64,000 bases of DNA from Heptranchias perlo (lineage: Eukaryota): the NCBI RefSeq assembly GCF_035084215.1, contig NC_090358.1:6882001-6946000 (forward strand), read 5' to 3'. Below are positions 11,781-39,415 of the stretch, in pieces. The stretch's first letter is position 1, and the number at the start of each line of letters is the position of its first letter. The position numbers and the translations under genes were made by a program. Under the pieces are notes generated by a model that saw nothing but the letters and a program-made list of their open reading frames with translations, did not search any database and was not told where the DNA came from.

Positions 11781-12647
11781 TCAGGACCAATGAATTAATT
11801 TCAAAGTGCAGTGAAAACAACAGGCTGCTCTTTTGAGAAATACATAGATCATTCACTGTGATTCCCTCCACAGATGAATAGTCACATAAGGCTCCCAGCA
11901 AAAGGTAAAAAAGGAATTGTTTTTTGGTTTACATGTTACAAGCAGAATGTCTCCATATGATAAAAAGGCTATAGAGGCACTGGAGATGGTACAAAAAAAG
12001 ATTTACAAGGATGATACCAGAATTGCGAGATTATAGCTATCAGGAAAGATTGAACAGGCTGGGGCTCTTTTCTCTAGAAAAGAGAAGGCTGAGGGGTGAC
12101 CTGATTGAGGTCTTTAAGGTTATGAAAGATTAAGATTGGGATAGACGTAGAGAAAATGTTTCCACTTGTGGGGGAGACCAAAACTAGGGGTCATAAATAT
12201 AAGATAGTCACCAATAAATCCAACAGGGAAATCAGGAGAAACTTCTTTACCCAGAGAGTGGTTAGAATGTGGAGCCTGTTATTACATGGAGTAGTTGAGG
12301 CGGATAAGGAGAAGCTAGATAAATACATGAGGGAGAAAGGACTAGAAGGATATGCTGATAGGGTGAGATGAAGTAGGGTGGGAGGAGGCTCCGTGTGGAG
12401 CATAAATACCGGCATGGACCAGTCGGGCCGAATGGCCTGTTTCTGTGCTGTACATTCTATGTAATTCTCAGGACCAACGAATTACTTTCAAAATGTTGTA
12501 GAAACAACAGAATAAGGGGGAGGGGGGCTCCCCATATGAAAAATAAATAAATCATTCACTATGATTCCCTCCACAGTTCAATAGCCAAATAAGGCTCCCA
12601 GCAAGAGGTAAAAAGAGGAACTGTTGTTGGTTTACATGTTAGAAGCA
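11781..12647 (+). repeat. ~165-180 bp direct repeat (11781-11944 / 12468-12647) flanking a CR1 insertion
   Basis: Both copies run TCAGGACCAA...ATCATTCACT.TGATTCCCTCCACAG...TAAGGCTCCCAGCAA...GGTTTACATGTTA.AAGCA. Confidence 0.85.
11945..12467 (+). mobile_element. CR1 LINE 3' fragment
   Basis: MFPLVGETKTRGHKYKIVTNKSNREIRRNFFTQRVV; 3' tail ATTCTATGTAATTC. Confidence 0.88.
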
Positions 12648-34674: not shown

Positions 34675-34770
34675 GGACCTGATAGAGGTCTTTAAGATTA
34701 TGAAAGGGTTTGATAGGGTAGACGTAGAGAAGATGTTTCCACTTGCGGGGGAGACCAGAACTAGAGGCCA
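34675..34770 (+). mobile_element. CR1 LINE fragment, left part of the host element split by R2
   Basis: Nearly identical to the CR1 copy at 2017-2110 up to ...GGCCA. Confidence 0.88.
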
Positions 34771-37700
34771 CGGCAGGAGTAACTATGACTCTGATTCTGA
34801 CTACGAGAGTGGTTGCAGCAGTCCAGTTACATTGTGGGTAACTCTCTAGAAATCTCAGTTACCTCGTGGTCCCCTCGTGGACAACAATACGACTTTCGTG
34901 TTGGCTAAACTGACAGTTCAAAGAATTCTAACGCGATCTGCGGAGATCAAGTAGCCTATAGGAGAGGGGAAAATTATTTTAGAAAAACCTTTAGATAACC
35001 CCTCGGGGCATCTCATTCCGGTTGGGATACGGACCAGGCGAAAAACCCAGTGTGTTGCCAGTAGCACCCGGCGCCAAATGTACACGCTGCGACAAAGCTG
35101 GACCTGGATAGCGGTCACGAGCTCATATACACATACTTATGAGGAGGAATTTATTCAAATTATACCAATAGGAGTACCCAATCAAATTCCATCTCAGACG
35201 GTCAATTGATTTTGTGGTGGAGAAACAACTGGGTGACAACTCTTCCAGAGTACGAGGGAGAGCAACCCCTCAGAAATAATTCCTGTGGGGCATCGCAATT
35301 GATTCGTACAAAGATGTTTTATAATTCAGGTCTCAAAATTGCATCAAAGAAGTGGAATACTGAGGAAGGTGAGATAAACACTGTCGACTCCAATTTACCA
35401 AGTACAAGCACTCACTGCGCAGCAATAAGAATTGATCCCATTAATGTGCCCAATCAATTGAAGGAAGCTACCATTCATTAGCCTAATGATAGTCTATTAT
35501 GTGTATAATGTTACGAATACCTGGATTCATATACTATATTCAAAACACCAGGTTACAAAAATAACCACTACATGTACTAAATATAGTAGGAAAAGTGACT
35601 TCCATTCGATTGCCTGCCATTGCACTAAATGCGAAGGGCAGTGCCATGCTGCCTCTGTCGGCCAATTCAGTTGCACAGTGTCCTTTAAGATTTTCAGGAA
35701 AAATTGGTTGCGGCCAGCATGAGCGACATTTACACCCAGAACTTAGGAATAAGAAGAGTTGAGGATAGCATTCCTAAGAAAAAGACCAGTAAAAGATCGG
35801 TATGGTCCGAGGATGAAATAAGGAAGCTTGTTGAATTCGGGGCCAAATTTACAGGTCCCCGGAACATAAATAAAAGGATTAGTGAACAACTGAAGTCAAA
35901 AACAAATAAACGGATCTCCGATAAAAGGAGATTTCTTACTGCCAATGCAGAGCAGGTGAGGGAGGCAACAGTAAGTACATCAAGCGCAATAATAGAATTG
36001 AACGAATCGCTCGTGCGAAGAAAATCGAGAACTCACAACGCATTGTAGCGCTACTAACAATATCCAAACAGAAGATATTTTAAAGGGTAACACTCTCCAA
36101 CGTGACATCAATAATTTACTCTTGGATGCCGAACAATTATTAAAGTGTCGGCCTGATCCTGAGGCAGAAGCCCAGGTAATCAGACTTATTGAGGTTATTA
36201 CTAAAACAATTTTGGACAATAATAATAAACCATCTGGAAATAAAAAGACTAAGGGTTTTGTAAACAAGAATCAGAAGTACAAGCCCATTGTTAAAAAGAA
36301 ACTCCAGATCAACAAAATGATACGCTAGGAAACAAGCTGCTTTTATGAGAACGTAAACTCTATTTAAAAGCGATAGAAGAAAACTTGCTCGTCAGATAAT
36401 GGGCGGACCTGCGGGAATTAAATGCCCGTTAGGTAAAGCTGAACTTGATTCATGCTTTACAAATAAACTGTCAACTGTTAACAAGGCAGACATCAGTAAG
36501 TTCGTAAGCTGCATTCAGGCGGCTAATAACATCAATCTCACGAGAGCCAGTGAGAACAAAAAGAAATCTGCTCTCGAAAGCATGGTAGTTGGGAGTGCAC
36601 CAGGTCCTGAACGGAACTACGGTCGATGACCTTAAAGACTCGAAGGAGGGGACTCCACTTTATTACCAAGGCTCTTCTCACTTTGGCTTAAAACACCTAC
36701 TATCACGAAACTAATAAAAATGAGTAGAACGGCTCCGATACCAAAAAGTGAAGATACCGAACTTCTCAAGGACATAGGTAATTGGAGGCCAATTACAATT
36801 GGCCCAATGCTGCTTAGGCTTTTCAATAAAATCACTGCCAAAAATTTAGCTGACACCATTACCTTGAACCCTAGACAGAAAGGGTTCACTGCAACCAGAA
36901 TATTGCAAAACATTATAAAAGGAAGTACAACAGAAAACAGCTAGTCGTTGTTTTCGTAGACCTAGTTAAGGCCTTCGACTCTGTGGGACACAAGTTAATA
37001 TCAAAAGCATTAACACGGCTGGGACTAAGCAAGAACTTTATAAAATTGATAGAAAATCTTTACGTAAAGACAACAGTGATCAAAGGGGCGGGATTCAAAA
37101 CCAATCCAGTTAAAATTAGTAGGGGTGTCAAGCAAGGCGACCCCCTTATCTCCTCTTCTGTTTAATATCACTTTGGACCCCCTATTGTGCTCGTTGGAGA
37201 GGGCTGGCTGTGGCATTTGGATGAAGATTAGTGATGGGCATATCAAATGCACGTTGCTGGTCTTCGCTGATGATATCGCAATAATCAGTGACTCCCATTC
37301 AGGAATGGAGCTAAATTTAAAGATCCTCGAATCATTCTGCAAAAAAAAAAACCGCCTTCTGATCATTATCAGAAAAAACGCAGGATTTCATCTGTCCACA
37401 AAGAAAAAAAATCATTCGTATATAACTATGGCAAGAACCGGCAGTTGAATGGGAAAGATCTGGCATTTGTCGATCCCGGAAGTTTTGAGAAATATCTCAG
37501 CGCCAGAATAGATCCACGGGTTGGAATACCCGAGGATAGTCGGGCAGGAAAATTAGAAAACTGGATCCAAAATTTAAAGGAAACCGAACTCAAACCAAGT
37601 CGGAAATGTGAGATCCTCAAAAGCTTTATTATCGCCAGATTTTATTTTCATTTAACTTTAAAAGGAAGCCTCTCAAAATACATTGATGAATCTGGACAAT

Positions 37701-39187
37701 GTAGTTAAAAGGTCGGCAAAAGAAATACTACATTTACCCAATCACATCACTGATGGTTTGTTATATACTAAAAGCAGAATTGTGGGTCTTAGCTTACCCA
37801 AGTTCGAATTTCAGATTCCTTCTGCAATCGTGAGAAAGCTCGATGCCTTCAAGAAGTCAACTAATTCGATTTTAAGAGTGTCTTTTTTGTTCTATGGACA
37901 GGACAATCTCGGAAATATCGAAAGATTGAGGAACCTTAATGTGCTTAAAGAAGTATCCAATTATTCTGAACCATTAAGGAAAATGACCCTAGTAACATCG
38001 CAATTGGATCAGAAGTTAGTGACACTGAAGAACAAGTTGGGAATTTGATTCCCCGCCCCCCCACCCCCCCCGAGCTGTGGAAGGAGAAAAATAAAACATC
38101 TATGCCCATTGGAGGAACTTTAAATGTTATAAATGGTCCAATTTACAATATCAGGGTTCTGGCATAATGACATAATCGCGAATAATTGGGTCAGGCGCAA
38201 TATCGGTATGAAACAATCTCAATTTATTAATGCTCTTTTAATTAGATCTAACCAATACCCCACCAGATACACCTTATCCCTTGGAAGACCCACGGCAATG
38301 AGAACATGCAGGAAGTGTGACTTGGCTAATGAAACAATGGTCGATGTCCCTCAGTTAAGAACGCAAGGATAAAAAGACACAACATAATCCTTGAGCAACT
38401 GAAGAACAACTGTCTGTGGTTAGGCATCGTATCTAGAACCCAGAATAAAGTCAGCCGATGGCAATCTGTGGAAACCAGATATAATCTTTCGTAAAGGGAA
38501 TGGTTTTATAATGGTCGATGTAACCGTTAGATTCCAAGACAGCAATAAATCACTCGAGGTGGCTTGGACTGAGAAACAGGATAAATACAGAATGTTGGCA
38601 TTTGCTATTAAAGGCCTTACTGGCCGAGAGACTATAAAAGTTTTTGGCTTTGTAATGGGTGCCTGGGGAAAATGGTTCAAAAAAAATAACTGATGAAATT
38701 CCTCAAAATTGACCACTATAAAACTTGTGTGTGTAGAATTTCAAGGCTCACAGTGCAGCTTACACCGGACATTTTGCATATTTTTATGAACTTAATATAT
38801 TGTTTTTATATATTTTTTTAAAAATAGATTTAACATGTTTTATAATTTTTGTATGTTATATTTTAAGCAGTCCAATTTTTATTTATATGATTTTAATTAT
38901 TTTATTATGCTATATTTTAATGTTGCGATTTTAATTATTTTATCTATTTGATATTTTATTAAACGGAATACAAAATTCCAGTTTATCTCCCTTGAGTAAT
39001 CCAATGCTTGGTGTTATTCTGTGACACCTCCTTTTATATCACAACGGCCTGTCTTCCCTCTCCCTATACACCAGCTGCTCCCCCTTGTCTGAGATATTTC
39101 GCCGGAATTGACATAGTGGACAAGCCACTTAAACACTTGAAATATACACTCATTTAATGGATTTTGATTCCAAGAGTGTACTTAAAG
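34771..39187 (+). mobile_element. R2 non-LTR retrotransposon (R2-A-like), both ends present, inactivated
   Basis: Fragments in order: three decayed Zn fingers (35500-35740, including HSIACHCTKC and GCGQHERHLHP), Myb (KRSVWSEDEI...KTNKRISDKRR), RT (SAPGP, NWRPITIG, LNPRQKGF, DLVKAFDSV, GVKQGDPL, FADD), CCHC-like CRKC..NET, and restriction-like endonuclease (KPDII..MVDVTVRF..EKQDKY); many stops and frameshifts; 28S-like 5' leader. Confidence 0.93.
34772..34913 (+). ncRNA. Degenerate HDV-like R2 ribozyme with 28S-derived leader
   Basis: P2 TCAGTT (34855) pairs with AACTGA (34908); P3 ACC-TCGT-GGT; P4 hairpin CAACA..ACGA-CTT-TCGT..TGTTG; J4/2 GCTAA; L3 and P1 are decayed. Confidence 0.65.
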
Positions 39188-39415
39188 TAGTCACTAACTA
39201 ATCCAATGGGGAATTCTGGAGAAACTTCTTTACCCAGAGAGTGGTTAGAATGTGGAACTCGCTCTCACAAGTAGTTGAGGCGAATGGCTTCAAACACACG
39301 AGGGGAAAAGGGATAGGGTTAGATGAAGTAGGGAGGGAGGAGGCTGGTGTGGAAAATTAACATGGGCTGGACCGAATGGCCTGTTTCTGTACTGTACATT
39401 CTGTGTAACTCTATG
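39188..39415 (+). mobile_element. CR1 LINE 3' end, right part of the host element split by R2
   Basis: Resumes at TAGTCACTAA...GAAACTTCTTTACCCAGAGAGTGG, collinear with the copy at 2122-2395. Confidence 0.88.

Follow-up and report, generated by a model that had tools for sequence, protein, structure and literature searches.

A dead full-length R2 element with a degraded HDV-like ribozyme at a recurrent LINE insertion site in Heptranchias perlo

The window, a stretch of 64,000 nucleotides of genomic DNA, contains a dead full-length R2 element that starts at position -28 of 28S, has a precise 3' junction and lies in a LINE that lost 11 nt of target. The same base of this LINE has received R2 copies of different lineages and ages, and the HDV-like fold of which the window copy keeps remnants is found intact in sister copies. 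With the recurrent LINE target, R2 shows a new form of behaviour; the observation itself is well supported, and the mechanism is one that we infer. In the best explanation, to which we give a probability of about 0.8, the RNA of the window copy was likely released by its ribozyme from a 28S co-transcript at -28 and likely inserted by an R2 protein at a near-cognate LINE site.

Structure of the window copy

Both flanks of the element are LINE sequence, that is, the copy lies outside 28S (Table 1). The upstream flank stops 11-13 nt before the nick site of three empty-site copies (L117, L118 and L120), and the downstream flank begins exactly at the nick position used by other dispersed copies. 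Eleven target bases were lost at the 5' side, with no target duplication, and a single nucleotide, 34771, matches neither the LINE flank nor the leader. We take the host to be a CR1-type LINE on the basis of the C-terminal peptide of ORF2, seen in short 3' fragments only. The window has two empty sites of this LINE, one of them exact, at 2109-2138 and 12192-12221; its segment 48001-50000 is GC-rich (0.65 vs about 0.45 elsewhere).

In a tblastn comparison, the intact R2 protein from rDNA is covered by the window over 1293 of its 1326 amino acids at 41%. RVT_1 matches fall within the open reading frame, whose aligned row has 22 stops and many frameshifts. By its domains the copy is an R2 non-LTR retrotransposon, though its reading frame is broken.

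Table 1. Features of the window copy, with two U6 chimeras found elsewhere in the genome
Feature	Position	Strand	Evidence or remark
Host CR1-type LINE fragment, 5' part	34676..34770	+	92-93% identity to empty-site copies L117, L118, L120
R2 element, full length but dead, 4416 nt	34772..39187	+	sense relative to host LINE
28S-derived leader, -28 to -8	34772..34792	+	20/21 match; 34772-34777 is the P1 5' strand
J1/2 hairpin, 8 bp	34836..34864	+	MFE fold; homologous to covarying sister hairpin, 3 pairs changed on both sides
L3 remnant, P3 3' strand, mismatched P1 3' strand, lost P1.1	34862..34879	+	alignment A1, 3' of deletion
P4 stem-loop	34882..34903	+	sister alignment, covariation, MFE fold
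J4/2 GCTAA and P2 3' strand	34904..34914	+	alignment; predicted catalytic C at 34905
R2 ORF, broken; RT, endonuclease; N-terminal zinc fingers and Myb by homology	34961..38791	+	tblastn, RVT_1 hits
R2 3'-terminal stem and A-rich end, conserved	39147..39187	+	motif shared with rDNA-resident copies
Host LINE resumption	39188..39285	+	81-89% identity to empty sites, from their nick base
U6-R2 chimera	L066:399-499	+	U6 stops 0-1 nt before the -28 base
U6-R2 chimera	L168:1886-1987	-	U6 stops 0-1 nt before the -28 base

An earlier note, made from the window alone, had matched bases 34770-34792 to 28S, stated that the window holds no rDNA and identified GGCAGGA at 34772 as the -28 position. All three statements hold. 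Against the 28S of the same genome (taken from L049), 22 of the 23 bases match, and the reversed control is found 0 times genome-wide; a gathering-threshold Rfam scan of the window gave 0 rDNA matches. The ribozyme also remained unmatched in the Rfam scan of the window. The alignment of the LINE flank reaches as far as 34770, which places the start of the element at 34772 (28S -28), and on this alignment the matching bases 34770-34771 are probably not 28S-derived. The sole leader mismatch is a CG to CA change, which is consistent with CpG decay and is shared with three other copies (L027, L044 and L045).

The earlier note had further seen P2, P3, P4 and J4/2 of an HDV-like fold downstream of the leader. 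P4 and J4/2 stand, being homologous to those of the sisters: GCTAA occupies 34904-34908, and the column of the catalytic C (a predicted role) is at least 90% conserved in the sister alignment. The named P2 and P3 are probably not the homologous helices. Aligned with 19 sister copies, the window copy shows a gap of 15 columns that spans the P2 and P3 5' strands together with part of L3, and about 15 nt holding these two strands appear to have been deleted from it. Homologues of the sister copies' P2, P3 and P1 3' strands are present in it. The bases that had been proposed as the 5' strands of P2 and P3 fold as the 3' arm of the J1/2 hairpin, in which 34836-34843 pair with 34857-34864. An alternative 6-bp P2 can be drawn by eye and looks like chance.

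P1 of the window copy, read from the sequence, has 4 of 6 pairs, and the nested double pseudoknot of P1, P1.1, P2 and P3 is incomplete. The best descriptor fit, in a register that is not the homologous one, forms 13 of 16 pairs; because 19 of 100 shuffles reach at least 13, we identify the fossil by homology and not as a complete HDV fold. In pseudoknot-free folding the window copy is unremarkable (z = -0.31), compared with z = -3.36 for an intact copy. Its leader and ribozyme together represent a known kind in degraded form.

Intact sister ribozymes and the -28 start

Fitting the HDV-like descriptor to sister copies gave 16 of 16 pairs (P1, P1.1, P2 and P3) in L073 and L146, which reside in rDNA, and in L071, which lies at the LINE site; none of 100 shuffled L073 sequences reaches 16. 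P1 forms with the 28S leader at 6 of 6 pairs in intact copies, and -28 is the only register within 28S -40 to 0 that reaches 6 of 6. An HDV core is present at nearly all leader loci scanned (50 distinct copies with it, 5 leader hits without). In a 20-copy alignment, 84.5% of the HDV-pair cells are formed vs 29-51% in slid controls, the structure being taken from L073, which favours that copy. Double-sided changes occur in P2, P4 and the J1/2 hairpin. P1 has none, because its 5' strand is fixed by 28S, and its pairing with 28S -28 to -23 is kept in 91.7% of cells across the 20 copies. A single register of P2 fits only 58.8% of cells across families.

Searching the genome (3.25 Gb) with the exact leader gave 623 hits, and the control gave 0. 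The first 28 chromosomal leader loci were inspected: 28S lies upstream at 5, and the other 23 are dispersed. Among the latter, the 28S match ends exactly at -28 in 22 copies; that of the window copy runs 2 bases further. An automated tally of the 5' extent of 77 copies anchored at their 3' ends made a call in 45 and none in 32. Its mode is -28 (18 of 45), with 25 shorter and 2 longer calls, and on inspection at least 4 of the short calls are mis-anchored (L083, L154, L168 and L183). The apparent 28S matches past -28 in L071 (to -33) and in the window copy (to -30) were rejected, as their bases equal or nearly equal the LINE.

In two independent cases, L066 and L168, a whole U6 snRNA stands fused to a short R2 copy at its -28 start, the outcome expected of a template jump off the RNA's 5' end. 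Template jumps involving snRNAs were reported for Drosophila R2 (PMC3414825), and in the account of PMC3774820 -28 is the commonest position of R2 ribozyme cleavage. Reverse transcription to the very end of the RNA, as the earlier note had it, is thus supported: the 22 of 23 copies, the two U6 jumps and the P1 register agree in placing the RNA 5' end at 28S -28. From the sequences and the descriptor model, a ribozyme cut at -28 is predicted; the pile-up of 5' ends at this position and the U6 jumps lend the predicted cut site support in vivo.

Four copies of the second rDNA lineage (L191, L242, L248 and L249) have no stops in their aligned rows and are missing the whole ribozyme, through a 5' deletion directly after the 28S leader; perhaps they have spread by rDNA recombination. 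SIDE-like elements with complete ribozyme cores also occupy the 28S site (L131, and L146, L147 and L151, of 1152 and 808 nt).

The recurrent LINE site and the R2 lineages that use it

A flank-free pattern of the R2 3' end, built from element-internal sequence, gave 107 hits (control 0), 100 of which were listed. Among the latter, 21 are in rDNA contigs or the C12 rDNA cluster, where only some were inspected, another 2 belong to dispersed 28S pieces, and the remaining 77 are dispersed. L113 and L161 were rejected as having no R2 similarity, which leaves 75 dispersed R2 or SIDE-like 3' ends listed, and 64 of these abut the same nucleotide of one CR1-type LINE. The 64 comprise 61 found by automatic classing and three assigned by eye (L201, L169 and the window copy); with L116 and L152, which share junctions, counted once, there are 63 of 74 events. 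The other 11 of the 75 are at other sites, several of them starting with TAG. An independent search anchored on the reverse transcriptase (18 hits) added L232, L234, L235, L237 and L238, all with the same LINE junction.

Within the LINE the site falls in the 3' part of the coding sequence, and the insertions are in sense orientation. Their 5' junctions vary from copy to copy, so the LINE-site copies were not amplified as one chimeric LINE. They range in age from L071 and L165, only 0.5% apart, to the window copy with its 22 stops. Many are SIDE-like elements of 0.9-1.4 kb, and one family of about 1.4 kb has 13 leader-bearing dispersed copies with a mean identity of 90.8%. The short sisters have the ribozyme 5' end, the R2 3' end, no full ORF and independent insertions, as is diagnostic of R2 SIDEs.

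Several loci of the census are unusual. L116 and L152 (G000:C7:41.477-41.484 Mb) share their junctions, lie about 6.3 kb from each other in opposite orientation and represent an inverted duplication or an assembly artefact. The flanks of L159, L055 and L160 resemble, by eye, other positions of the same kind of LINE, and L159 and L055 have one upstream flank in common. In L025 (G000:C2:140227135) the LINE resumes after the leader and about 35 nt, nearly the whole element being absent. R2 is nested in R2 at L075, L245, L246, L240, L054 and L183, and several of these 3' junctions start like the 28S site. Dispersed chromosomal pieces of 28S adjoin R2 or SIDE copies at L187/L130 (G000:C37:30.447 Mb), L233, L054 and L051; L187 is 5'-truncated and is followed by at least 1.46 kb of 28S, with no 28S upstream.

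The genome also keeps an R2 family at the canonical 28S site, with 35 3' junctions and two lineages with intact ORFs. A tree of 29 rows, with 9 further rows left out (the near-identical rDNA copies L243 and L246-L249, the copies L063, L079 and L186 with low cover, and the unlabelled L166), has LINE-site copies within each of the two starred clades to which the intact rDNA lineages belong, as well as on deep branches. The window copy belongs to no starred set; in protein, the rows nearest to it are about 56% identical, and its lineage has no rDNA copy left. The rDNA-resident parent claimed for it earlier is likely. Such a parent does not follow from the leader alone, because a dispersed copy (L071) keeps both the leader and the whole ribozyme. 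As the parent is extinct, the rDNA origin of the window copy is not directly visible.

L071 (G000:C33:3703582-3708160) is a full-length R2 at the LINE site with an uninterrupted ORF of 1326 aa and a complete ribozyme fit. It is 97% identical in nucleotides to the rDNA copy, with a pN/pS of 0.19. L165, L162, L157, L112 and L187 are nearer to it than to today's rDNA copy; L071 and L165 have 5 and 6 private changes, and L165 may be a daughter or a sister of L071. Four contig sets from one sample, presumed to be RNA, cover the rDNA-type R2, about 97% identical to L071. Among the contig pieces listed from these presumed-RNA sets none bridges a LINE-R2 junction; such contigs cannot show 5' ends.

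The LINE site resembles 28S around the nick, where 9 of 11 bases match from -5 to +6. Further matches are found at -19, -20, -22 and -24, which makes 4 of 7 bases at -25 to -19, and the T/C-rich stretch of 28S at -12 to -6 is replaced by A/T. Because of the latter two features the LINE site may be recognised differently. Off-targets of R2Tg in human cells, as described in PMC12222951, keep the T at -20, bases -19 to -25 and 4-5 downstream bases. We consider it likely that the LINE repeat mimics the usual R2 target.

The site is also abundant. The genome has 7071 empty exact LINE sites, and the motif shared by 28S and the LINE occurs 15,248 times vs 383 for its reversed control, at least 10,723 of these occurrences continuing as the LINE; as an argument from mass action this count is partly circular, because the shared motif was picked after both sites were known. 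R2 occupies about 64 of more than 10,000 LINE sites after long accumulation, and its 35 3' junctions at 28S fall in about 600 sites. Since 28S is far preferred per site, we read the LINE as a secondary near-cognate site that dominates by abundance. Extant locations also reflect loss, as R2 copies are lost faster from rDNA (PMC13580325). CR1-group elements were reported to make up 22-34% of elasmobranch genomes (PMC13343379).

Origin of the LINE-site copies and comparison with known R2 systems

RNAs born in rDNA and landing on an abundant near-cognate site are the best reading of the LINE-site copies. The HDV-like ribozyme would free the R2 RNA from the 28S co-transcript at -28, and the R2 protein would then carry out target-primed reverse transcription (TPRT) at the near-cognate LINE site, as suggested by the 9 of 11 bases shared with 28S around the nick and by the shared T at -20. 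Priming may be aided by the 3' end of the RNA. The 5' side would be closed by end-joining, because the leader would find no homologous DNA to anneal to, and variable 5' junctions would follow. The LINE site would dominate by mass action, being more than 10 times more numerous than the 28S sites. After its insertion the window copy would have decayed, ribozyme included.

Another reading, which we consider unlikely, is that R2 cycles between two homes: with the 28-nt leader that LINE-site copies bring along, a read-through transcript of them would be trimmed to unit-length RNA, and some dispersed masters, the parent of the window copy perhaps among them, would be independent of rDNA. Full-length copies would keep a self-sufficient ribozyme, because cleavage at -28 would leave the 28S half of P1 in them, and L071 combines its intact 1326-aa ORF with a predicted ribozyme of 16 of 16 pairs outside rDNA. 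The group of five copies nearer to L071 than to the rDNA copy, and the 3' end of the 1.4-kb SIDE family, absent from all of the rDNA junctions inspected (30 of the 35), point the same way. However, the low pN/pS of L071 and the few private changes of L071 and L165 fit a recent insertion from a lost rDNA variant, and L187, a copy of the L071 type, has 28S downstream. SIDEs are present in rDNA too (L131 and L146). The host fragments upstream of R2 at L071 and in the window are short, about 95-135 bp, and bring no LINE promoter; a LINE promoter driving L071 was itself rejected, the fragment there being only about 135 bp. Finally, four LINE junctions (L156, L174, L175 and L192) have the 28S-type +4 base, vs 97 per 7071 empty sites, a weak hint that this base reflects RNA tails derived from rDNA. 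It is doubtful that the LINE mimic is a second R2 home in which intact copies like L071 form a reservoir that re-seeds rDNA after loss.

We find it improbable that R2 proteins have become adapted to a second target, the LINE site, beyond mere tolerance. Such adaptation would account for 85% of dispersed 3' ends falling at one base in lineages up to about 45-50% divergent in protein, with only a modest upstream match between LINE and 28S. Occupancy per site is, however, far lower at the LINE than at 28S, further near-cognate sites are also used, and use of the LINE site by every sampled lineage suggests a shared ancestral tolerance. An origin at the DNA level (recombination, gene conversion or the multiplication of a single LINE with R2 in it) or a misassembly has a negligible chance of being right and is largely refuted by the junctions. 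The stop of 28S at -28, the base-precise 3' junctions, the varied 5' junctions, the 5' truncations and the U6 jumps are marks of reverse transcription, and the copies span many divergent lineages on chromosome-scale contigs; a DNA-level event is suggested at the local duplicate pair L116/L152.

The recurrent LINE site documents, naturally and over a long time, the landing place of a vertebrate A-lineage R2 when 28S is missed. Proteins of this lineage belong to the class with which genes are inserted into rDNA in human cells. From the site it can be read which bases of the target are dispensable and which are kept, and nicking and TPRT assays gain in it a second substrate that is ready for use. 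The reservoir model can be put directly to the test with the intact copy, which has its own predicted ribozyme outside rDNA; if that model were true, a LINE-site reservoir would be one answer to the question of how R2 survives the turnover of rDNA. According to a 2026 review (PMC13580325), the known deviations of R2 have either given up specificity or shifted to other places in rDNA, and a framework that accounts for the durability of R2 is lacking.

The ribozyme is of the kind described by Eickbush, Burke and Eickbush in 2013 (PMC3774820). As in the R2 HDV-like ribozymes presented there that cleave at -28, the 5' strand of P1 comes from 28S -28, and a 6-bp P1, P1.1, P3, a variable P4 and the J4/2 catalytic C are held in common. 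Unlike those, the window copy is broken and lies outside rDNA, and the cut site is read here from dispersed insertions and U6 jumps. In its protein the intact sister L071 resembles the vertebrate A-lineage R2Tg (PDB 9dou/9nl3; E = 3e-214 vs 5e-84 for Bombyx-type chains), and the rDNA copy shows, like A-lineage R2, three N-terminal zinc-finger motifs, Myb, RT and endonuclease motifs. The chondrichthyan R2s of Hassan et al. 2026 (PMC13188248) were selected for 28S flanks, unlike the dispersed copies here, and the portions consulted describe no recurrent site outside rDNA; the LINE-site motifs, sought in supplement 7 of that article, returned only an unrelated moth row.

A recurrent LINE site for R2 was not reported in the portions of the literature consulted. 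What these articles (PMC11331408, PMC13580325, PMC13188248, PMC5035012, PMC2718515 and PMC13343379) describe are R2s without specificity, shifts of position inside rDNA and non-28S copies that are scattered. Non-28S copies of R1 and R2 are treated in PMC2718515, in which Drosophila non-28S R1 copies carry 7-28 nt of upstream 28S. The R2 SIDEs of Drosophila (Eickbush and Eickbush 2012, PMC3414825) are likewise short, consist of ribozyme and 3' UTR and have an snRNA at the 5' end, U12 as described there and U6 here. Unlike them, the elements of this genome form several families of 0.8-1.4 kb, most sampled copies of which are outside rDNA at the LINE site. R2NS, R8 and R9, as presented by Kojima et al. 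2016 (PMC5035012), are R2-type insertions away from the canonical site, as are the copies here. In contrast to these three, specificity in the present genome is neither lost nor shifted within rDNA: the same lineages hold 28S and one base of a LINE.
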